Assembly (NCBI GenBank): GCA_034530615.2
Contig: JAVRCV020000032.1
Coordinates: forward strand, 128,001-192,000
DNA from: Aulosira sp. ZfuVER01
Lineage (GTDB): Bacteria; Cyanobacteriota; Cyanobacteriia; Cyanobacteriales; Nostocaceae
Direction of reading: 5' to 3'
Length of the DNA stretch: 64,000 nt
The notes under the pieces are model-generated. The model worked only from the letters and a program-made list of their open reading frames with translations, made no database searches and was not told the origin of the DNA. A program made the translations under genes and the position numbers. Every line of letters begins with the position of its first letter. Position 1 is the first letter of the stretch. Positions 30,422 to 60,233 of the stretch are shown here, piece by piece.

Positions 30422-30828
30422 AATTAGTCTTGCAGTCAATTTTGAGTATTAGGCTGTAAAGTATTGAATTTGCACGCTGAATCATAAGTTTAGCCCGAGT
30501 GTTTAACAGCAAACATTGCAATATACCTCTTACATAAGTCGATTTTGTGGATAGCAAACCACAGATGAACACCGATATTTATCTGTATGCATCTGTGATG
30601 ACTTTTGTCAGATTTTTGCAAGCAGTCTAATATTTAAGCAGATCGCCTGAATGACATTCATGTATAGATAACATCCTATTTTCAGTGTATACACCGGAGC
30701 CATTTATGATTGACAGTTAATAAAATTACTATATTCACGTCTGTGAGTGTGGCTAATCAAAGTTAGTCACTGTTGCTGATTGTTGGGAAGGTGTACGGAT
30801 AACCCTTCTGGGGGTTTTCCTGCATGAT

Positions 30829-30855
30829 AGGCATCTCTTGTAGATGCCTTTTTTT
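30829..30855 (+). terminator. Rho-independent terminator
   Basis: AGGCATCT-CTTGT-AGATGCCT followed by T-run. Confidence 0.75.
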
Positions 30856-49923: not shown

Positions 49924-50718
49924 CTATTGACTAAAAACTAAACTCGGCCAGTCAATTTGGCGATAATAGCGTGTCATGTCGTCAAATTTTCTCAGTTCAA
50001 CGCGATCAACTAAAAATCCTGGTGAGTTTAACAGCCATTGTTGATTCAAATTAGAGAGCATGGTACTAAAACCTGTACGGTCTAGTTCGGGTGAAACTTC
50101 TCCAAAATAACCTAATGTAATGTGGGCAGTGAAGTGATAATGTTGTTCAATACCCAAAGCCATTAACTGGGGATTTTGATAAACAGTGCGGCGAAATTTA
50201 ATCACCTGTTCGTAGCAACGCTCATCCTGCGGTACTAAACAAACTCCGATAGCTCTGGGCATGACTATCAATCCCAGTACTTGCCAATATATAGGTTGAC
50301 GATCGTTTGCGATCGCTTTTTGATAGTCCTGAAATATTTCAGCCAAGCAAGAACATAATTGCTGTTCAAATTCGGGGTTTTTCTCGCAGGCGTCACGGAA
50401 AGCACTATCCCAAATCAAATCTGCTAACGTCAAATGAAAGCTAGTATCTGGTACAGGCACAATCAAATCACTGTTGGCAGACAACTGTAACAATTGTTGT
50501 TGATAACTTTGTAACTGGGAGTAGAAAGCAGAGTTTTCTGTTGCTTCTACCGCCGGTGGGGTAATTAGCGTGTAGCCAGGAAATGGTACTGCTTGTCTCA
50601 ACCCGGAATCTGGCTGAAATTTAGAAGACTCCTGAATATGTTGGACTTGGGATCTGTAAGCTTCTGGTAGCATCATTCGTGCTACCCGATTCAAGTAAGT
50701 TTGATAATTGTCGTCCAA
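49924..50718 (-). CDS. 2H phosphoesterase (DUF1868-like)
   Basis: Two HxT motifs (FHLTL, AHITL). Confidence 0.8.
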   Translation of the reverse strand: MDDNYQTYLNRVARMMLPEAYRSQVQHIQESSKFQPDSGLRQAVPFPGYTLITPPAVEATENSAFYSQLQSYQQQLLQLSANSDLIVPVPDTSFHLTLADLIWDSAFRDACEKNPEFEQQLCSCLAEIFQDYQKAIANDRQPIYWQVLGLIVMPRAIGVCLVPQDERCYEQVIKFRRTVYQNPQLMALGIEQHYHFTAHITLGYFGEVSPELDRTGFSTMLSNLNQQWLLNSPGFLVDRVELRKFDDMTRYYRQIDWPSLVFSQ

Positions 50719-50950: not shown

Positions 50951-50954
50951 AAGG

Positions 50955-51037
50955 CGGAAGATGGAGGAATCGAACCCCTAGGTGTTACCCCACCCCGGTT
51001 TTCAAGACCGGTTGCCGACCATTCAGCGGCATCTTCC
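50955..51037 (-). tRNA. trnS: tRNA-Ser(UGA)
   Basis: Cloverleaf, long variable arm, G73. Confidence 0.9.
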
Positions 51038-51044
51038 ATTCAGG

Positions 51045-51119
51045 GGTGTCTGACGGGGCTTGAACCCGTTATGACTGGTTCCACAAACCAGCACCGCGAC
51101 CACTTTGGCTTCAGACACC
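51045..51119 (-). tRNA. trnH: tRNA-His(GUG)
   Basis: Anticodon GUG, G-1:C73. Confidence 0.9.
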
Positions 51120-51124
51120 ACCAG

Positions 51125-51198
51125 TGGAGCCAAGGGGATTTGAACCCCTAACCTTCCGCTTGCAAGGCGGATGCTCTAGCCAGTTGAGCTATGGTCCC
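51125..51198 (-). tRNA. trnA: tRNA-Ala(UGC)
   Basis: Anticodon UGC, G3:U70. Confidence 0.9.
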
Positions 51199-51201
51199 AT
51201 T

Positions 51202-51276
51202 TGGCAGGAGTGGTAGGACTTGAACCTACATCGGTCGATTTAGAAGATCGATGCCCATCCATTAGGCGACACTCCC
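51202..51276 (-). tRNA. trnR: tRNA-Arg(UCU)
   Basis: Anticodon UCU, encoded CCA. Confidence 0.9.
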
Positions 51277-51282
51277 ATAAAT

Positions 51283-51358
51283 TGGTAGCCCTAGCAGGGA
51301 TTGAACCTGCGACTTCCTCTTTGTAAGAGAGGCACTCTCCCCACTGAGTTACAGGGCT
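51283..51358 (-). tRNA. trnV: tRNA-Val(UAC)
   Basis: Anticodon UAC, encoded CCA. Confidence 0.9.
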
Positions 51359-51363
51359 ACGAG

Positions 51364-51435
51364 AGCGAGTGATGGGATTTGAACCCATGCGCTGAGTGTG
51401 GCGCACTCAGATGCTAGCCACTACATCACACCCGC
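51364..51435 (-). tRNA. trnG: tRNA-Gly(GCC), atypical anticodon loop
   Basis: GCGGGUG acceptor, U73; loop GC-GCC-AC (C33). Confidence 0.75.
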
Positions 51436-51458
51436 ATCGAAGAACCTATACGGTTCAG

Positions 51459-51529
51459 AGCGATCGACGAGACTCGAACTCGTACCGTGAGTTTGGAAGA
51501 CTCTGATGCTGCCTTTACACCACGATCGC
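51459..51529 (-). tRNA. trnG: tRNA-Gly(UCC)
   Basis: Anticodon UCC, U73. Confidence 0.88.
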
Positions 51530-51533
51530 ATTA

Positions 51534-51607
51534 AGCTGGTAACAGGAATTGAACCTGCAACCTACTGATTACAAGTCAGTTGCTCTGCCAGATTGAGCTA
51601 CACCAGC
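51534..51607 (-). tRNA. trnT: tRNA-Thr(UGU)
   Basis: Anticodon UGU, canonical arms. Confidence 0.92.
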
Positions 51608-51610
51608 ATT

Positions 51611-51688
51611 TGGTAGCGGAGGTGGGATTTGAACCCACTACGTGAAGGCTTATGAGACCTCAGAGCGCACCATAGCTCTATCTCCGCG
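51611..51688 (-). tRNA. trnM: tRNA-Met(CAU), C1:U72 mismatch (initiator-like acceptor)
   Basis: Anticodon CAU, encoded CCA. Confidence 0.82.
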
Positions 51689-51689
51689 A

Positions 51690-51763
51690 TACCCCTGACT
51701 GGATTTGAACCAGCAACTTCCAAATTTTAAGTTTGGCACCTCTTCCAATTGGGTTACAGGGGC
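51690..51763 (-). tRNA. trnL: tRNA-Leu(UAA), intronless, short variable arm
   Basis: Anticodon UAA, A73. Confidence 0.85.
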
Positions 51764-51769
51764 AAGTTT

Positions 51770-51844
51770 TGGTGGGCGCTACAGGAATTGAACCTGTGTG
51801 AGCCTGATTAAGAGTCAGGAGCATAACCGTTCTGCCAAACGCCC
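51770..51844 (-). tRNA. trnK: tRNA-Lys(CUU)
   Basis: Anticodon CUU, encoded CCA. Confidence 0.88.
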
Positions 51845-51850
51845 TAGTTT

Positions 51851-51925
51851 TGGTGGGTCGCCCAGGGGTTGAACCTGGATAAGTCTACTTAAAAGGTAGC
51901 TGCATATCCGCTCTGCCAACGACCC
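51851..51925 (-). tRNA. trnK: tRNA-Lys(UUU)
   Basis: Anticodon UUU, encoded CCA. Confidence 0.88.
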
Positions 51926-51929
51926 AAGT

Positions 51930-52007
51930 TGGTACTCCCGACAGGATTTGAACCTGCAACAATTCCGTCCCTCAAACGGAAGCGTTTACCAATTTCGCCA
52001 CGGGAGC
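51930..52007 (-). tRNA. trnL: tRNA-Leu(GAG), short variable arm
   Basis: Anticodon GAG, encoded CCA. Confidence 0.85.
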
Positions 52008-52012
52008 ATCAG

Positions 52013-52086
52013 TACCCCTGACAGGAGTCGAACCTGCAAAACACTCGGTCTAAACGAGCGACGGTTTCCAATTACGTCACAGGGGC
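52013..52086 (-). tRNA. trnL: tRNA-Leu(UAG), short variable arm
   Basis: Anticodon UAG, A73. Confidence 0.85.
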
Positions 52087-52089
52087 AAA

Positions 52090-52166
52090 TGGTCGGGATG
52101 GCAGGATTTGAACCTGCAACCTTCAGCTCCCAAAGCTGCCGCGCTACCAAGTTGCGCCACATCCCG
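52090..52166 (-). tRNA. trnP: tRNA-Pro(UGG)
   Basis: CGGGAUG acceptor, anticodon UGG, CCA. Confidence 0.93.
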
Positions 52167-52167
52167 T

Positions 52168-52248
52168 TGGTACTCCTGACGGGAGTCGAACCCGTACAAA
52201 ATAGACTGTTTTTGAGACAGCCGCCTCTTCCAATTGGGCTACAGGAGC
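52168..52248 (-). tRNA. trnL: tRNA-Leu(CAA)
   Basis: Anticodon CAA, CCA. Confidence 0.85.
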
Positions 52249-52254
52249 ATAATT

Positions 52255-52330
52255 TGGCTGCCCTGCCAGGGTTTGAACCTGGAATCTCCTCGTTCAAAGC
52301 GAGGGATGTTGCCAGTTACACCACAGGGCA
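52255..52330 (-). tRNA. trnQ: tRNA-Gln(UUG)
   Basis: U1-A72, anticodon UUG, CCA. Confidence 0.9.
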
Positions 52331-52335
52331 ATGAT

Positions 52336-52412
52336 TGGCTGCCGAGGTTGGGGTCGAACCAACATCTCCGTGATTCAGAGTCACAGCGACTTTCCAAGTC
52401 GTCCACTCGGCA
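52336..52412 (-). tRNA. trnQ: tRNA-Gln(CUG)
   Basis: U1-A72, anticodon CUG, CCA. Confidence 0.88.
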
Positions 52413-52417
52413 ATGAA

Positions 52418-52493
52418 TGGCTGCCCAAGTAGGAATCGAACCTACAACAAAGCGGTTAACAGCCGCTTGCTCTGCCAATTGAGCTATGGGGCA
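52418..52493 (-). tRNA. trnN: tRNA-Asn(GUU)
   Basis: Anticodon GUU, CCA. Confidence 0.92.
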
Positions 52494-52502
52494 ATGTGCC
52501 AG

Positions 52503-52577
52503 TCCCCCAGATCCGGATTGAACGGATGACCTCCTGTTCTTCAAACAGGCGCTACTACCAACTGAGCTACCAGGGGA
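52503..52577 (-). tRNA. trnF: tRNA-Phe(GAA)
   Basis: Anticodon GAA; one U:U mismatch in acceptor. Confidence 0.85.
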
Positions 52578-52582
52578 TAAGG

Positions 52583-52656
52583 CGAGAACGGAGGGACTTG
52601 AACCCCCACTCTTCAGGTTCGTAATCTGAGATGTTATCCAGTTACACCACGTTCTC
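52583..52656 (-). tRNA. trnR: tRNA-Arg(ACG)
   Basis: Anticodon ACG. Confidence 0.87.
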
Positions 52657-52662
52657 ATAAGG

Positions 52663-52747
52663 CGGAGAGAGAGGGAATTGAACCCACAGTGGACTTGCAT
52701 CCACGACTGTTTAGCAAACAGCTTGCCCTGCCAATAGCAATCTCTCC
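52663..52747 (-). tRNA. trnS: tRNA-Ser(GCU)
   Basis: Anticodon GCU, long variable arm, G73. Confidence 0.88.
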
Positions 52748-52751
52748 ATGA

Positions 52752-52832
52752 TGGGTCGGGCTGGAATTGAACCAGCAACGCAAACGCGGCGGTTTTACAG
52801 ACCGTTGCCCACACCAATAGGCGAGCCGACCC
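52752..52832 (-). tRNA. trnY: tRNA-Tyr(GUA)
   Basis: Anticodon GUA, variable arm. Confidence 0.9.
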
Positions 52833-52850
52833 ATATATGTTTGAGTAATT

Positions 52851-52922
52851 ACTTGAGATTTCTGGGTGAAATAAAGGAATGGAGAGACCAGTTTTCCTGT
52901 TCTCTGCCATCCCAACTCAAGT
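52851..52922 (-). ncRNA. Structured non-tRNA insert within the array
   Basis: Nested stems ACUUGAG/CUCAAGU, UGGG/CCCA, AUGG/CCAU, AGAGA/UCUCU with a pyrimidine-rich bulge. Confidence 0.45.
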
Positions 52923-52925
52923 CAG

Positions 52926-52999
52926 CAGTGCCGACGGGGATTGAACCCGCAATCTCCTGCTTGAAAGACAGGTGGCTTTACCAATTTGCCTACGGCACC
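52926..52999 (-). tRNA. trnE: tRNA-Glu(UUC)
   Basis: Anticodon UUC. Confidence 0.9.
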
Positions 53000-53010
53000 A
53001 AGATTGAGAT

Positions 53011-53152
53011 TTCTACCACGCGCAAGTTTGAGAAGCTGTTTTTAACAGCCTCCAAGTTTGGTTTGGCGGAGGCTGTAGGAGTCGAACCTACTTCGGTTTT
53101 ATAGACCGATTAACCAGTTTGTAAGCTTCTGATGTTGGGGCACGTGGTAGAA
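53011..53152 (-). ncRNA. Circularly permuted tRNA-like RNA (YrlA Y-RNA-like)
   Basis: Variable arm, T arm (GUAGG-UUCGACU-CCUAC) and AGCCUCC-G-CCA precede the acceptor 5' strand GGAGGCU; enclosed by AGAAGCU/AGCUUCU and a 13-bp terminal stem. Confidence 0.7.
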
Positions 53153-53223
53153 CGCAGAGACTAGGATTTGAACCCAGACCAAAGGTTTTGGAGACCCTTA
53201 TGCTGCCGTTACACTATCCCTGC
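53153..53223 (-). tRNA. trnW: tRNA-Trp(CCA)
   Basis: Anticodon CCA, G73. Confidence 0.87.
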
Positions 53224-53226
53224 ATT

Positions 53227-53327
53227 TGGTCGCAGCGGCGAGAGTTGTAGACGCGGAGCGGCTTCCCGAAGGGTACTCGCATAATCTCGGTTATGAGCCG
53301 AGTACCTTGCCGTTAGGTTACACTGCA
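53227..53327 (-). tRNA. tRNA-CAU (Met or Ile2) interrupted in the T-loop by a 26-nt insertion; possible pseudogene
   Basis: CUCGG-CUCAUAA-CCGAG anticodon arm, CCA; T stem GCGAG/CUCGC encloses the insert. Confidence 0.78.
53248..53275. mobile_element. Small dispersed repeat with TA duplication
   Basis: TA-GACGCGGAGCGGCTTCCCGAAGGG-TA. Confidence 0.75.
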
Positions 53328-53332
53328 ACGTT

Positions 53333-53407
53333 TGGAGTCCGAGGTGGGAATTGAACCCACGATGATTGATTTTGCAGACCAACGCCTTTCCACTTGGCTA
53401 CTCGGAC
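53333..53407 (-). tRNA. trnC: tRNA-Cys(GCA)
   Basis: Anticodon GCA, U73, CCA. Confidence 0.92.
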
Positions 53408-53412
53408 ATTTT

Positions 53413-53489
53413 TGGAAGCCTCGACGGGAGTTGCACCCGCTTCTCTCTGACTGAGAATCAGAGCGACTTTTCTATTCGTCCACAAGGCT
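53413..53489 (-). tRNA. trnE: tRNA-Glu(CUC), atypical T-loop
   Basis: Anticodon CUC; T-loop UGCAACU; U73; CCA. Confidence 0.78.
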
Positions 53490-53492
53490 ACA

Positions 53493-53568
53493 CGGGGATG
53501 ATGGGATTTGAACCCACGTTCTTTCGCTCGACAGGCGACTGCTTTTAACCGGACTAAGCTACACCCCC
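53493..53568 (-). tRNA. trnD: tRNA-Asp(GUC)
   Basis: Anticodon GUC, G73. Confidence 0.9.
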
Positions 53569-53583
53569 ACGTTGGGTGGCAAT

Positions 53584-53644: not shown

Positions 53645-53695
53645 CACTACATGTATACTACATATATACTACAAAACTGTCAAGGGCATACTACA
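53645..53695 (-). promoter_or_regulatory. tRNA array promoter with repeated operator boxes (TrcR-type)
   Basis: -35 TTGACA (53683-53678), 17 bp, -10 TAGTAT (53660-53655); TGTAGTAT x3 plus TGTAGTG. Confidence 0.85.
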
Positions 53696-53771: not shown

Positions 53772-54308
53772 TTACTCATTCTCGGTTAGGCGTTGTGCAT
53801 TCCAAAACTGTTCGGCAAATGCAACCGCTGGGTGGATTGGCGCTTTAGGCTTGGTTTTGAGTACCATTCCTGCTTCATGTAGAAGGCGATCGCTCTTAGT
53901 TGAGTTGCACTTGTCACACGCTGTTACAACGTTGTCCCAGGTATGCTGTCCACCTTTGGAACGCGGAATCACGTGGTCGAGGGTGAGACGTTTTGTGCTA
54001 CCGCAGTATTGGCAGGTATGGTTATCGCGCTTGAGTACTTCACGACGGTTGACAGGCGGTACTTTCCAATGACGTTCGGGATTGCCAACAGTTAGACGGA
54101 TGTGTTCGGGAACTTGTAGTACGATGCTGGGAGAGCGAACTTCCCAAAGCTTGGTGCTGCCGAACTCCAACGACTCTGCTTGACCTGTAACTAACAGCAC
54201 AACAGCTCGTTTAATGTTGATGCGTGCTAATGGTAGGTAGTTTTTGGAGAACACTACCACCGAATTTTGTAATATCTGTGGTTCCTGAGTTTGTGGTTGA
54301 GCTTGCAT
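53772..54308 (-). CDS. HNH endonuclease
   Basis: RDNHTCQYCG, TLDHVIP.SKGG..TWDNVV.AC..CN..K; RBS GAGGAG. Confidence 0.93.
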   Translation of the reverse strand: MQAQPQTQEPQILQNSVVVFSKNYLPLARINIKRAVVLLVTGQAESLEFGSTKLWEVRSPSIVLQVPEHIRLTVGNPERHWKVPPVNRREVLKRDNHTCQYCGSTKRLTLDHVIPRSKGGQHTWDNVVTACDKCNSTKSDRLLHEAGMVLKTKPKAPIHPAVAFAEQFWNAQRLTENE

Positions 54309-54325
54309 ACCTTAATTCACTCCTC

Positions 54326-54365
54326 AAAAAACAACCCCCACCTCTGATTACCAGAAGCGGGGGTT
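54326..54365 (-). terminator. Intrinsic terminator (attenuator) directly before the HNH RBS
   Basis: AACCCCCGCUUCUG-GUAAU-CAGAGGUGGGGGUU-G-UUUUUU. Confidence 0.8.
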
Positions 54366-54386
54366 AAGTAGTTGATACTTCTTGCC

Positions 54387-54605
54387 TTATATCGGTGCTA
54401 GAGAACACTTGCACCTCCCGCTGTGGATAAGTCGATCTGGATTCAGCCATCCACCAATTGCTCCAAAAATGTCAACAATTGCAGATTTACCACTGTGAAA
54501 CTGATATGTCTCCTCAAATGCCAATAGCACAATTGCACTGCCCGAACCCTTGCTGGGTCGGCAATGTATCGCACTGCGTAAGGTTGAGGAAAATCTGAGT
54601 CTCAT
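54387..54605 (-). CDS. Putative leader peptide (uORF) of the HNH gene
   Basis: 72-aa ORF between promoter and terminator; its last codons carry the antiterminator strand. Confidence 0.5.
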   Translation of the reverse strand: MRLRFSSTLRSAIHCRPSKGSGSAIVLLAFEETYQFHSGKSAIVDIFGAIGGWLNPDRLIHSGRCKCSLAPI

Positions 54606-54612
54606 CGAATTT

Positions 54613-54667
54613 TGTAGTATTTGTAATCGGATAAATTAATAATACAGTTGTAGTATATATTTGTCTA
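54613..54667 (-). promoter_or_regulatory. HNH promoter with two TGTAGTAT operator boxes
   Basis: -35 TAGACA, 17 bp, -10 TATTAT; boxes at 54613-54620 and 54649-54656. Confidence 0.7.
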
Positions 54668-54810: not shown

Positions 54811-56409
54811 TTAATGACCAATAGGTGCTTTGGCTCCAGCGCCTCCCTTACCAAGAAACAGCAGTAATGGTAGTGAGCAGAGAAAAATAATGCCAACAAA
54901 GCGAAAAATGTCTGCGTAGGAGAGAACGGCAGCTTGGGTACTGACCAATTGGGAGAGCGAAGCGATAGCTTGTTGTTGTGCAGTTGTTGGATCGGCACCG
55001 CGACTTTGGAATAGTCCTGTCAGATCGTTAAGCCTCTGACTCGTTTCTGGATCGTAAGGCGTTAACTTTGCCAACAAAATTGCTCGATGAAAAGCCTCTC
55101 GTTGAGCCAGTAAAGTCGTCAAAATGGCAATGCCAATGCTACCGCCCAATTGACGGGTTAAATTATAGAAGCCAGATCCAGCCGATACGTCTTGTTTGGG
55201 GATAGAACCTAATGTTGCCAAACTTAAAGGCAGAAACATCAAAACCGTGGTTGCACCCCGCCAGACCAGCGGCCAAAATAAGTCATCAGTTCCGGTTTGG
55301 GGCGTAATTTTTGCCAGATCAAACATGACTGTTGTGGTGCCAACGGCTCCTAGCCCAATTAAAATCCGCGCATCTATCTTAGTCGAGATTTTGCCCAGTA
55401 AAACCATCATGATGGCGGATGCTAAGGCTCCCGGAGCAAGTAACCATCCAGTTTGTGTGGCTGAAAAGCCCAGCACACCTTGAGCAAATAGCGGTACGGC
55501 AAACAAAGCTCCGTATAGTCCCATGCCTAAAATACCAGAGTAAACGCTACCGGCGGACAGAGATTTATAACGCAGAACTCGTAAGTCAACTGCTGGTGCT
55601 TTCGTGCTGAGTTCTCGCCAGATAAACAGAATTAGGCTAATAGCTGCCATGAGGGCTAGTGTTGTAATGAAACCCGATTCAAACCAGCCGTCTTTTTCTC
55701 CTTCTTCCAAAAAACCCTGCAAACTACCCACCGTAATACACAGCAATATAATTCCTGCCCAGTCTACTGTCTTCTGACTCTGGGAGTGTTGCTTTACATC
55801 GGGTCTAAGGAACACAAGCGCCATAATTACGGCGACAATGCCAACAGGCAAGTTAATAAAGAAGATCCAGCGCCAGCCTAATGTATCAGTTAGATAGCCG
55901 CCCAGAGTCGGGCCAATCGCCGGACCCGCAATTACTCCTACCCCAAACACCGACTGTGCCATCCCCTGTTCGGCTGGGGGAAAGGTCTCGAACAAAATCG
56001 CTTGCCCTTTGGCTAGTAGTCCACCGCCGCATAAGCCCTGAATAATCCGAGCCACCACCAGCATCGGTAGGTTAATCGCTAGACCACATAACACCGAAGC
56101 AGCTGTGAACCCGATCAGAGAAAAGACAAAGTAGGTTTTTTTACCGAAAAAGTCGCCCAACCAAGCAGAAAGCGGAATCAGGACAACGTTAGCGATCGCA
56201 TAACCGGTGACCACCCAACCAATCTCGGTCACAGTTGCCCCTAAAGTTGCCTGCATATCCGTCAAAGCAACGTTCACAATGCTGGTATCAATAACTTCAA
56301 GAATGGCTCCTAAAGCAGCTGTCATCGCGATCGCCCATTTGAGCGGTCCTTGGATGTACCCGGCCTTGTCATAGGTAGATTGTGACGAGGGATGATTAGT
56401 AGTTGACAT
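54811..56409 (-). CDS. emrB: DHA2 family MFS efflux permease (EmrB-like)
   Basis: DTSIVNVAL, WVVTGY, GPAIGPTLGG, WRWIFFINLPVG. Confidence 0.9.
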   Translation of the reverse strand: MSTTNHPSSQSTYDKAGYIQGPLKWAIAMTAALGAILEVIDTSIVNVALTDMQATLGATVTEIGWVVTGYAIANVVLIPLSAWLGDFFGKKTYFVFSLIGFTAASVLCGLAINLPMLVVARIIQGLCGGGLLAKGQAILFETFPPAEQGMAQSVFGVGVIAGPAIGPTLGGYLTDTLGWRWIFFINLPVGIVAVIMALVFLRPDVKQHSQSQKTVDWAGIILLCITVGSLQGFLEEGEKDGWFESGFITTLALMAAISLILFIWRELSTKAPAVDLRVLRYKSLSAGSVYSGILGMGLYGALFAVPLFAQGVLGFSATQTGWLLAPGALASAIMMVLLGKISTKIDARILIGLGAVGTTTVMFDLAKITPQTGTDDLFWPLVWRGATTVLMFLPLSLATLGSIPKQDVSAGSGFYNLTRQLGGSIGIAILTTLLAQREAFHRAILLAKLTPYDPETSQRLNDLTGLFQSRGADPTTAQQQAIASLSQLVSTQAAVLSYADIFRFVGIIFLCSLPLLLFLGKGGAGAKAPIGH

Positions 56410-56444
56410 CGTAAATTTAGAATACTTCTCAAGAAATAACGGGA

Positions 56445-57890
56445 TTAATGACCCATCTGGGTTGATGCAGACTTTACCCCTGTGGTCGTATCGACTGTGA
56501 CCTTAACGCTTAATCCTGGTCTAAGCTTATGTTGCAAGTCGGTGTCGGGGTCAAACACAAGTCGAACCGGAACCCATTGCACAACTTTGTTGAAGTTGCC
56601 GGTGGCATTATCAGGTGGAATCAGAGCAAAACTGGAACCGGTAGCTGGACTAATACCGGCAATCGCGGCGGAGAAAGTTTCACCAGGATAAGCATCAACT
56701 TCAATCTCAGCTTTCTCACCAATTCGCAACTTGCCTAATGCCGTTTCTCGAAAGTTGGCATCCACATAAACCTCATCAGTTGCTAGCGGTACCACGGATA
56801 ACAAAGGCTGTGCAGCTTGGATTTTTTGACCTACCTGAGCAGTCAGTTGTCCTACATAGCCATTAATCGGTGCTTTGATCGTCGTGTAGGTTATTTGCTT
56901 GCGGGCAAGTTCCAGTGCCGCTTGTGCCTGTTCGACTTGCGCCTGCGCCTGCTGCTGCTGGTCTTTTTGCGTAGCGATCGTTTGTCCAGAAACTTTTGTT
57001 TCGGTAACTTGGCCTCTAGCCGCTTCAACCTCTGCTCTTGCAGTTTGCAGTTGCGCCTGAGCGTTTCTCACCTCTGCTTCGGACTGAGCCACGGTTTTAT
57101 TCGCCCCTCTCAGTTGTGCGATCGCATTCTCATAGGTAGCCCGTGCAGTATCTAACTGTTGTGCGGAAATTGCCCCTTCTTTGTAAAGCAATTGATAGCG
57201 ACGGAAATCAGCTTGTGTCTTGCGAACAGCAGTTTGTGCCTGCGCTACGTCAGCTTGATTGGTTTCAACTTTTGCTAGAGCTTGATTCACATTCGCCTGC
57301 GCTGCCCTCACACTAGCTTCTTTTGCTGCCAGATTAGACTGGGCTTGTTGCACTAGTGTGGGATTCGTCTGGCTGGTAACACTCACAGTATCTTTAGCCG
57401 CTCTCAACTGAGCTTGAGATGCTGCCAGATTTGCTTGTGCTTGTTGCAATTTCAGCTGCAAATCCTCGTCTTCTAGAACCAGCAAAGTTTGCCCCGCTTG
57501 GACGCGATCGCCATCATTGACCAACACTTTTTGTACTGTTGCCGGAACTTTGGCAGAGATTGGGGAGAGATGCCCTTTGATCTGGGCATTGTCAGTAGAA
57601 ACACGAGTGCTTTGAAATTGCCACCACTGTAATCCAAAAATAGAACTAGTCCCTATGACAATCGCGCCAATTACAAGCAGCAATCCCCGACGTTTCTTCT
57701 TCGTGCCTGTTTTTGGTTGTGGTGTTTCGTTTTCTCGATCGTCAAGGTCATTTTTTGGCTGTGTATCAACTGTTTTGGTGTAACCATTTAGTGGCTCGTC
57801 TTGATGTTCCGACTCTTCCAAATTGCTCAAATCCTGAATCTCAATAACATCTGGTTCGGTGGTCTGACTCTCTATTTGAGGTCGCTTCAT
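56445..57890 (-). CDS. emrA: HlyD/EmrA family membrane fusion protein
   Basis: STDNAQ, coiled coil, PPDNATGNFNKVVQ.VPV. Confidence 0.9.
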   Translation of the reverse strand: MKRPQIESQTTEPDVIEIQDLSNLEESEHQDEPLNGYTKTVDTQPKNDLDDRENETPQPKTGTKKKRRGLLLVIGAIVIGTSSIFGLQWWQFQSTRVSTDNAQIKGHLSPISAKVPATVQKVLVNDGDRVQAGQTLLVLEDEDLQLKLQQAQANLAASQAQLRAAKDTVSVTSQTNPTLVQQAQSNLAAKEASVRAAQANVNQALAKVETNQADVAQAQTAVRKTQADFRRYQLLYKEGAISAQQLDTARATYENAIAQLRGANKTVAQSEAEVRNAQAQLQTARAEVEAARGQVTETKVSGQTIATQKDQQQQAQAQVEQAQAALELARKQITYTTIKAPINGYVGQLTAQVGQKIQAAQPLLSVVPLATDEVYVDANFRETALGKLRIGEKAEIEVDAYPGETFSAAIAGISPATGSSFALIPPDNATGNFNKVVQWVPVRLVFDPDTDLQHKLRPGLSVKVTVDTTTGVKSASTQMGH

Positions 57891-57936
57891 TTGTGTCTCT
57901 ACTTCTATAAAATTGCAACTGGTGAGAGTGCTTCAA

Positions 57937-58587
57937 TCAATTTTCAGGAACATATCCAAGAGACGAAATCTGACTGACAGAGGACTTGGCTGTGCTAACC
58001 CCCCGCACAAATAAATCCACACATCCTTCCATGTATCTTTTACGGCTATAGCCCCGCTCAAGCAGGGAAACATGGCGGCGAATCATTCCAGCCAGTAGCA
58101 TTCCCGTCAATTGATCCACTGCCATCGGCAATTCAACATCAGGACGAATAATGCCCCGTTCCACACAGGTTTGCAGATAGGAAATTAGTTTTTGACGTAG
58201 CGGTAAAAATGATTGCTGAAGTACCTCTATTGCTTCTGTCGGATGCCGTTGAGCTTCCCCAATAAACATCCGAAATAAGGCTTCATATTCCTCCAGCATC
58301 TCGTCGTGGAGCTGTGCATAATGTAGAAGGTCGCGGCGGAGGTCATACGTCCACTCATCTGGATGGGTGAATGCTTCTGTTCGCAGTGCTGTAATATGCT
58401 GTGCAACCGCACTCAGAAGCTGCTCTTTGCTTTGAAAGTGGCGAAATAAAGTAACTTCAGTCACATCTGCAACGCGAGCAATTTCCCGGGTTGACGCTCC
58501 AACGTAACCTTTGGTGGAAAATACTTCAATTGCAGCTTTTAACAGGCGATCGCGGGTTTTTGTTGCGCCTCTACTTGTTTGACTCAT
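57937..58587 (-). CDS. TetR/AcrR family regulator
   Basis: HTH: A..VF...GY..ASTREIA..A.V.E.TLFRHF.SKE. Confidence 0.92.
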   Translation of the reverse strand: MSQTSRGATKTRDRLLKAAIEVFSTKGYVGASTREIARVADVTEVTLFRHFQSKEQLLSAVAQHITALRTEAFTHPDEWTYDLRRDLLHYAQLHDEMLEEYEALFRMFIGEAQRHPTEAIEVLQQSFLPLRQKLISYLQTCVERGIIRPDVELPMAVDQLTGMLLAGMIRRHVSLLERGYSRKRYMEGCVDLFVRGVSTAKSSVSQISSLGYVPEN

Positions 58588-58595
58588 AGCAATTA

Positions 58596-58615
58596 ATGTA
58601 AGCACTTACTTACAT
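58596..58615. promoter_or_regulatory. Putative TetR operator
   Basis: Palindrome ATGTAAG-N6-CTTACAT just upstream of the tetR start. Confidence 0.6.
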
Positions 58616-58860: not shown

Positions 58861-60147
58861 CTATTGACTGTCCGGAAGAGTCTCAAGTAAGCTACCTGCA
58901 AATGCGATCGCCTCTTGTGGCGTTGAGATTTTTCCTTCAGCTTGCGCTATGGCAATTTCGGTAAGTAGTTTGCCAATCAATGGTGAAGGTGGGACTTTTA
59001 ATGCTATAATGATTTCCTTCCCACTCACGATTGGAGCGGGATGAGCGACCAGATCATCAGGGTTCAGGTAGCGGCCGATCAAAGGTGCGTAAACACTAAG
59101 TTGTTTATCGCCAGGCATCGCCCCTACCAGATTATCGCAAGCTAAGGCAAACGCTACAGCAGTACTAAATCCAGTGCCTGCTTCCTGAAAGAGAAAATAT
59201 TGTTCTCTCAAAGACATATTGGCTAGTTTTAGCCGGGGGATCAGTCTTAAAACTGTAGTTACAGATTGGATTTCAGCACGGCTGTAGGTGAGTTGCATTA
59301 GCTCTATTTCCGCAGCTTCGGGATCGGGGTGGACGAGACAAGTAAGTTTAGCAATACCTAAGCGAGTCGTTTTGATGGTATCGCGGATGTAATCTCGCAG
59401 TTCCACCCCCAAAGGCTGCCAATTTTTGGCGATGAAGGCGGCGGCGGTATCAACTGCTGCTAGTTTTTGAAAGCTTTCATCTGTGGCATTTTTCCAGAAA
59501 GGTGCAAGTACACCATCTTTCCACGCAGCTGCGATCGCAGGTGTACCTTCAGGAATTGCCAACAAATAGCCAATTTCTACTCGGACTCGTTCTGCGGCTA
59601 CTTTTATGATGTGTGATGCTAAAGAACGAATCGTTTCTTGGGTAGCTGGCTCAATCGTCAAACCAAGTTGGGCGGATTGGCGATAAGCTCGCAATAATCG
59701 TAAAGGATCGTCTTCTAAGTTGGCAGGTGATACCATGCGCAACACACCCTGTTGTAAGTCAGATAAGCCTTGCAGGGGATCGATGATTTCTTGGGTATAG
59801 GGATCGTAAGCGATCGCATTGACTGTAAAATCCCGTCTGTGCAAATCGGTTTCTAAACTGGCTCCTTCCTGTTGAGCAATGTCAACTGTAGCGTTGGGAA
59901 AGACTACCCGCGCAATTTGCCTTTCGGGATCGAGTAATACAAAACCTGCTTGATAATGTTGAGCGATCGCACGTGCTACTTTGACTGCATCCGTGGGGAT
60001 GACAAAATCTAAATCTAGGTATTCACGACTTCTACCTAAAAGCGCATCTCGGACTGCACCACCTACCATGTATGCAGGTTGTGGCAATAATGCCAGACTA
60101 AAGGGCCAAGTTTCGGGAGCTAAGGTAGAAGAAACTGAAGGATGCAT
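58861..60147 (-). CDS. tRNA nucleotidyltransferase (probably CC-adding)
   Basis: VGGAVRD..LG....DLD, DLHRRDFTVNA, DDPLRLLRAYR. Confidence 0.9.
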   Translation of the reverse strand: MHPSVSSTLAPETWPFSLALLPQPAYMVGGAVRDALLGRSREYLDLDFVIPTDAVKVARAIAQHYQAGFVLLDPERQIARVVFPNATVDIAQQEGASLETDLHRRDFTVNAIAYDPYTQEIIDPLQGLSDLQQGVLRMVSPANLEDDPLRLLRAYRQSAQLGLTIEPATQETIRSLASHIIKVAAERVRVEIGYLLAIPEGTPAIAAAWKDGVLAPFWKNATDESFQKLAAVDTAAAFIAKNWQPLGVELRDYIRDTIKTTRLGIAKLTCLVHPDPEAAEIELMQLTYSRAEIQSVTTVLRLIPRLKLANMSLREQYFLFQEAGTGFSTAVAFALACDNLVGAMPGDKQLSVYAPLIGRYLNPDDLVAHPAPIVSGKEIIIALKVPPSPLIGKLLTEIAIAQAEGKISTPQEAIAFAGSLLETLPDSQ

Positions 60148-60233
60148 TGTAATAAAAATCAACCCAGCAACTAATGAATATAAGTTTGCCTTAAGCTAGA
60201 TTAACAATAAAGGTTCCTGGAGTTGGTTCTATT

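Follow-up and report, generated by a model that had tools for sequence, protein, structure and literature searches.

A conserved leader before an HNH endonuclease gene of Cyanophyceae as a probable ribosome-mediated transcription attenuator

Results

The window, the whole 64,000-nucleotide stretch from Aulosira sp. ZfuVER01 analyzed here, carries on its minus strand an HNH endonuclease gene (53772 to 54308) encoding the orthologue of All8564 from plasmid pCC7120delta (160 of 178 residues identical). Ahead of it, also on the minus strand, lie a sigma-70-type promoter (54639 to 54667; TAGACA-17-TATTAT, 10 of 12 consensus matches) orthologous to P-all8564, a 72-codon upstream open reading frame (uORF; 54387 to 54605) with the C-terminal end HSGRCKCSLAPI, an intrinsic terminator (54326 to 54366), and a Shine-Dalgarno-like GAGGAG for the HNH gene, assigned from its letters (54320 to 54325). 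Behind the HNH gene lies an L-type tRNA array of 28 genes (50953 to 53569, minus strand) with a separate promoter containing TrcR boxes (53646 to 53683, minus strand), recognized from its sequence together with PMC8421152 and PMC10272220. The preliminary description of this DNA had listed a promoter, a 72-codon uORF, and a hairpin with a U tract at the HNH ribosome-binding site, and we found each of them where it had been placed. By sequence, this is the L-array locus known from Anabaena PCC 7120.

According to work on Anabaena, separate direct-repeat promoters serve all8564 and the trn operon, and chloramphenicol induces both (PMC8421152). TrcR represses both (PMC10272220). The all8564 promoter was mapped by 5'-RACE (PMC8421152, Supplementary Fig. 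S9); an "orf1" before all8564, to which our uORF corresponds, is labeled in that figure only, the main text being silent on it. In raw RNA-seq data, we found the RNA 5' ends at the orthologous locus just 3' of the promoter.

In the window, a TrcR operator (54640 to 54656, minus strand) overlaps the -10 box and matches the motif footprinted in PMC10272220, which identifies the repressor boxes of the preliminary description as TrcR sites. With a TrcR box overlapping the -10 element of its all8564-type promoter, the HNH gene belongs to the TrcR regulon. A further candidate, a TrcR-like repeat in the 5' leader (54613 to 54626, minus strand), stands directly before the uORF start. Loss of TrcR alone raises all8564 17-fold (PMC10272220), so the gene can be induced without relief of attenuation. 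Because the tRNA array carries its own TrcR-box promoter, the leader element governs the HNH gene and not necessarily the tRNAs, and the control "towards the array" that had been proposed is not needed.

Several neighbors are recorded here in their own right. An EmrAB-like efflux operon (TetR regulator, HlyD-type fusion protein, and MFS transporter; 54811 to 58605, minus strand) lies directly upstream of the promoter, and the upstream neighbors vary between homologues. A gene for a 2H-phosphoesterase-like protein (49924 to 50718, minus strand) lies directly behind the array, a tRNA nucleotidyltransferase/poly(A) polymerase gene (58861 to 60162, minus strand) is near it, and an NsiR9 small RNA (Rfam) is found at 30727 to 30849 on the plus strand. 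A conserved element (53600 to 53589, minus strand) directly before the first tRNA is present in many arrays; we take it to resemble the boxA antitermination site of rRNA operons.

We gathered homologous loci by DNA similarity, by the HNH protein, by a sequence pattern, and with a covariance model (R1); an open frame was no criterion in picking them. Loci L064, L136, and L139, which have no full module, were dropped before the counts on 55 leaders. Before the counts on 89 non-redundant modules, we dropped L174, L176, and L217 (no module), L215 and L216 (weak), and L137 and L143 (duplicates of the window). Alignment A1 was made without L061, L085, and L086, which carry insertions. R1 matched in 71 of 150 Cyanophyceae genomes (E ≤ 0.1), and no match was found among 98 genomes from other classes of the phylum. 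Twenty pattern matches in viral contigs were judged to be chance, none of them matching R1.

The first gene behind the module was an HNH gene in 68 of the 89 modules. The preliminary description had suggested looking for the leader upstream of other genes, and the module is indeed reused, before alr0857-like genes (18/89) and rtcB (1/89). In the 2 modules with none of these genes behind them, the tRNA-array promoter comes next. In several loci, the module lies 100 to 220 nt before the gene start, which favors transcriptional control over control of the ribosome-binding site.

Genome G000, to which the window locus belongs, has two strong R1 copies. The second, on contig C77, precedes an HNH paralogue and a gene of the alr0857 family and is in divergent orientation to trcR. 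In PCC 7120, the paralogous locus reads asr0855-alr0856-alr0857 and is also divergent from trcR (PMC10272220). The counterpart of the second copy there is asr0855 (252 nt), and the matching frame of L243 likewise has 83 codons. Among the TrcR-type promoters of G000, a crude scan, which missed the strand of the known paralogue, found a leader terminator at the window locus only. A TrcR-type box also stands at C55:49805 (minus strand) of G000, before a GTPase gene whose product we take, from its N-terminal motif, to be EF-G-like.

Some homologous loci differ in arrangement. At L200 (1121 to 2699, plus strand), rtcB lies behind the module, divergent from a trcR-like gene, and the terminator arms carry a compensatory change. 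At L181 (1096 to 1414) and L190 (1396 to 1785), an intact promoter, uORF, and terminator remain without an HNH gene, and the array promoter follows 70 to 240 nt on. Array-type modules accompanied by a divergent, more distant trcR paralogue (43 to 55% identity) occur at L146, L147, L149, L150, L152, L154, L155, L157, L178, L179, and L182, and several HNH genes in this group look frameshifted. The tRNA-array leader (290 to 380 nt) of L098, L102, L107, L181, and L190 holds a second conserved ORF of 67 to 73 codons, for example L181:1489-1692 (plus strand), ending in (S/P/H)LERR(C/W)(F/L)L. We found no clear terminator behind it at these loci, and it is missing in the window, where the array leader is about 80 nt long. 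It is possibly another ribosome-dependent control, acting directly on the array.

The terminator of the window comprises a hairpin (54366 to 54332; -26.4 kcal/mol; 14 to 15 bp, including 2 to 3 G-U pairs) followed by six U (54331 to 54326), and a terminator stands before the HNH gene in all 110 loci L001 to L110, duplicates counted. Near the uORF end, positions 54422 to 54413 read AGCGGGAGGU and positions 54364 to 54356, in the terminator 5' arm, read ACCCCCGCU. The preliminary description had taken these stretches to be complementary. We found the letters to be as given; in the window alone, however, the duplex is not beyond chance, being equaled by 7.2% of 1,000 leader shuffles (z = -1.64 for the antiterminated fold), and we rejected its significance on that basis. 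The case for the pairing therefore rests on the homologues. The antiterminator helix is likely shorter than had been proposed, namely, a 6-bp core (AGCGGG element, 54417 to 54422, minus strand; predicted partner, 54361 to 54356), because the last four bases (54415 to 54412 region) also serve as the 5' arm of another hairpin, H2 (54415 to 54394).

Across the homologues, the core keeps its letters even at synonymous sites (AGC in 49/55 and GGG in 50/55). A stretch perfectly complementary to the 5' arm is kept 54 to 82 nt upstream of that arm. Within the approximately 280-nt leader, the 5' arm finds its best partner in the core in 50 of 55, and when the predicted nascent RNA is cut before the 3' arm, the core is paired with a probability of >0.5 in 52 of 55; the homologues behind these and all other pairing and frame counts are kin, not independent samples. 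Thus, the pairing is conserved at homologous loci, as the preliminary description had required. Compensatory evidence for the antiterminator is thin, since the core is almost invariant: only 2 of 8 pairs changed on both sides, which 497 of 500 shuffles equaled. The sole three-way compensatory change, with all three strands changed together, is in L211. At the central G, the core retains C in 83 of 89 modules, while the 3' arm takes U in 16. The central-G pattern and L211 are signs that point to a core under double constraint. We set aside a comparison of cognate and swapped duplex energies (-17.5 versus -17.0 kcal/mol; 0.2% of permutations), since kin share sequence.

H2 (54394 to 54415, minus strand), a conserved hairpin within the last uORF codons, had been overlooked. 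Five of its 7 pairs changed on both sides, one of them being G-C in 30 of 52 and A-U in 16 of 52 sequences. H2 and the terminator covary, with none of 500 shuffles as good. One possible role of H2 is to make the antiterminator loop shorter; another is to delay the ribosome on the core. In considering H2 as a possible polymerase pause hairpin, we saw no conserved pause motif by eye.

Folding predictions across the homologues bear out the earlier proposal that antiterminator and terminator are mutually exclusive. In the full-length RNA, the terminator is predicted to win in 54 of 55 (median, 10.4 kcal/mol); because it wins at equilibrium by about 10 kcal/mol, antitermination must be kinetic. In the window, the predicted antiterminator persists as the free RNA grows to 54340, and the flip comes at 54338 to 54336. 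About 14 nt of transcript lie inside the polymerase. With these counted, the flip point corresponds to a polymerase on the U tract, which makes a kinetic switch feasible.

We found that the uORF is held open while its peptide varies. At least 50 open codons run through the core in all 89 modules, and at least 55 do so in 54 of 55 leaders, compared with 11% of shuffled leaders. Of the 81 distinct uORFs in the array-linked class, 78 run from a conserved ATG through the core. Their lengths range from 54 to 112 aa, with differences that are multiples of 3 in 31 of 33 cases (exceptions, L092 and L095), and dN/dS is 0.61 for the uORF versus 0.07 for HNH. Broken cases also occur: in L087, the stop falls 27 nt ahead of the core; L064 has lost the core and uORF and retained the terminator; and in L191, the frame continues through the terminator. 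The counts support selection for a frame that would stay open through the element. The uORF is more likely to serve as a track for ribosomes than to supply a functional peptide; the window uORF had no match in Pfam or NCBIfam. We did not find a clear Shine-Dalgarno sequence before it.

The core is read in another frame in 4 of 55 leaders (L092, L095, L115, and L135), all with a stop soon after the core all the same; the count is from the 55-leader set, as several of the 13 nonzero frames among the 89 modules are anchoring slips. Stops fall 15 to 57 nt past the core in the 55 leaders. With these frames and stops, we rejected SGR(C/Y) as an arrest peptide. Cys- or Arg-specific sensing was rejected as well, since the codons result from the conserved RNA sequence and Tyr replaces Cys in the trcR-linked class. 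Because L061, L085, and L086 carry palindromic insertions of 14 to 24 nt between the uORF stop and the terminator, that spacing tolerates insertions.

We examined expression in four stranded raw RNA-seq runs from 2 studies, which are not condition resolved and of which approximately 25 to 43% each was used, mapped to L045 (98.9% identical to the PCC 7120 region). Sense RNA at L045 begins 9 to 12 nt before the uORF ATG, and in two runs, fragment ends pile up at 2947 to 2950, the foot of the hairpin. The ratio of leader to HNH depth was 18.5, 20.2, 45.8, and 2.0 in the four runs, bearing in mind that libraries of this kind sample short RNAs and hairpins unevenly. Depth returned to a low level in the stretch separating HNH from the array promoter, and no read-through into the array was seen. 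At the trcR-linked paralogue L243, the ratios were 0.67, 0.85, 0.65, and 8.2. Published values likewise put alr0856 above asr0855 (97 versus 23 and 701 versus 215; PMC10272220). At the hairpin, where an RNA 3' end had been predicted, depth thus fell 18- to 46-fold in three runs and 2-fold in the fourth for the orthologous locus; for the paralogue, it fell 8-fold in one run and showed no drop in the other three. Expression fits attenuation at the former and is mixed at the latter.

Discussion

The leader has a conserved anatomy, and at one orthologous locus it appears to be present as a short, abundant RNA. We regard the conserved leader as a probable attenuator through which ribosomes control transcription of the HNH gene. 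We infer that the uORF is translated and that the RNA switches structure in a given direction in response to stress, as follows. Release of TrcR would come first, and the promoter would fire. A ribosome keeping pace with the polymerase, its P site near codons 58 to 68, would cover the core while the terminator emerges, so that the hairpin folds and the polymerase releases a leader RNA of about 300 nt. If ribosomes stalled within the first ~57 codons or failed to load at all, the core would be left to pair with the 5' arm while the 3' arm is still unavailable, and this pairing would let the polymerase continue into HNH. The long variable frame would allow the leader to gauge the rate of translation in general, in series with TrcR.

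The main alternative is that the hairpin marks a boundary of RNA processing or stability, or acts as a terminator with a fixed leak. Full-length transcripts would then make up a constant fraction, with the HNH part decaying faster and TrcR providing all of the regulation. The depth ratios, which cannot separate termination from decay, are compatible with it, as are the paralogue without a sustained drop in 3 of 4 runs, the dominance of the terminator in equilibrium folding, and the induction by TrcR loss alone (PMC10272220). It leaves unexplained, however, why a frame stays open across the core in 89 of 89 modules and why a complement of the 5' arm is frozen 54 to 82 nt upstream of it. We consider this alternative unlikely.

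Our attenuator reading also fixes a direction, and the same parts might work with the opposite logic. A ribosome at the uORF end would then block the terminator or park past the core, so that good translation gives read-through and a stall on the core gives termination, in the manner of pyrBI. Two observations count for this logic and against our reading. First, the stop falls 57 nt past the core, about 4 nt before the terminator 5' arm, in 8 of 55 leaders. Second, in a footprint model (+15/-13 nt; steric effects of a ribosome in the loop lie outside it), a ribosome at codons 69 to 72 would leave the core free. The earlier claim that a ribosome near the uORF end masks the antiterminator thus holds in the model with the P site at codons 58 to 68, the only positions at which masking is predicted, and fails for a ribosome parked at the stop codon. 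In contrast, most stops lie 25 to 55 nt from the 5' arm, and some lie just 15 to 21 nt beyond the core, so that a terminating ribosome covers it. Leader depth also exceeded HNH depth in runs at the orthologous locus, and chloramphenicol induces the gene and does not repress it (PMC8421152). We regard the opposite direction as very unlikely.

The least probable of the three alternatives is a leader product, either a small protein or an RNA, that acts in trans and binds the HNH nuclease as an antitoxin or a guide, much as HEARO/omega RNAs bind IscB. The leader RNA is abundant and discrete, the HNH domain resembles those of IscB and Cas9, a weak long stem is partly retained in the 5' half of the leader, and Asr0855 is among the clade signature proteins (PMC2823733). 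Against this, the peptide varies in length, sequence, and frame; 21 of 89 modules do not have HNH as the first gene behind them; and the leader has no Rfam match. The 178-aa HNH protein scores 62 bits against an IscB cutoff of 175, and the consensus fold of the 5' half reaches just -5 kcal/mol, so we rejected a HEARO/omega RNA with IscB as well.

The closest parallel to the attenuator that we propose is the whiB7/wblC leader of Actinobacteria, as described in the parts of three reports that we used (10.1101/2023.06.02.543512, 10.1101/2025.10.10.681568, and PMC11550727). Both have a long uORF (83 aa in Mycobacterium smegmatis and 72 codons here), the last codons of which join an antiterminator (here by prediction and conservation) with an intrinsic terminator next. 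There, translation leads to termination and a stall leads to read-through, the logic that we propose here by analogy. The whiB7/wblC attenuator is layered on promoter-level control and reacts to translation stress in general, and we propose the like for the present leader. The two differ in phylum, in target (a transcription factor there; HNH, alr0857-like, and rtcB genes here), and in the partner layer (an autoactivator there and the repressor TrcR here). The whiB7/wblC uORF is alanine rich, whereas Ala makes up 8.5% of residues across 78 uORFs here, and here an extra covarying hairpin follows the core. The leader would work like the whiB7/wblC attenuator and, judged by target and Ala content, is no member of the whiB7/wblC leader family.

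Antibiotic attenuators of Firmicutes have very short uORFs, on which a drug-specific stall opens the switch, while the trp, his, and ilv attenuators carry control codons in a row within a short leader. The Firmicutes systems (rli53/lmo0919, PMC11550727; vmlR) are like ours in having a uORF-dependent terminator and antiterminator opened by ribosome inhibitors, and they differ in that the long variable frame here would report any delay before the core. We rejected an amino acid-specific leader-peptide attenuator: the 78 uORFs use all 20 residues, none above 11%, and the window uORF has no run of one control codon. No family of Rfam 15 reached its gathering threshold, the best being rnk_leader (23 bits versus 50; E = 0.14).

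The TrcR regulon, with the trn (L-array) operon of Anabaena PCC 7120, is the same locus, including the TrcR-box promoter, orf1, all8564, and the separate trn promoter (PMC8421152 and PMC10272220). The promoter, TrcR repression, and the ORF are already known. The two reports, in the parts used here, explain induction by derepression alone, and we propose an RNA-level layer on top. Their main texts contain neither "attenuat" nor "terminator" (0 occurrences each). In the parts of the literature searched, which included PMC8421152, PMC10272220, PMC13613805, PMC8632094, PMC2823733, and PMC7858274 and had subscription papers outside its scope, we found no account of this attenuator, and transcription-translation coupling in cyanobacteria was not established. 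According to PMC10272220, TrcR would be lost by an "unknown pathway."

By a narrow preference, we favor the broader view that Cyanophyceae have their own, independently evolved, portable, and peptide-independent ribosome speedometer, forming an AND gate with TrcR and licensing the HNH nuclease, an Alr0857-family protein, or RtcB only when ribosomes lag behind the polymerase. The class of mechanism is itself already known from whiB7. If this view is true, the leader would be a direct sensor of translation stress in cyanobacteria, present in two copies in the model strain, and orf1 and the "hypothetical protein" Asr0855 would be explained as regulatory tracks. It would be an RNA family new to Rfam 15 and would give a phylum that lacks Rho a defined attenuator. 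It would also offer a direct assay of kinetic transcription-translation coupling in cyanobacteria and, for engineering these organisms, a compact part that responds to stress. The nuclease beside the tRNA arrays would then be held under a double lock.
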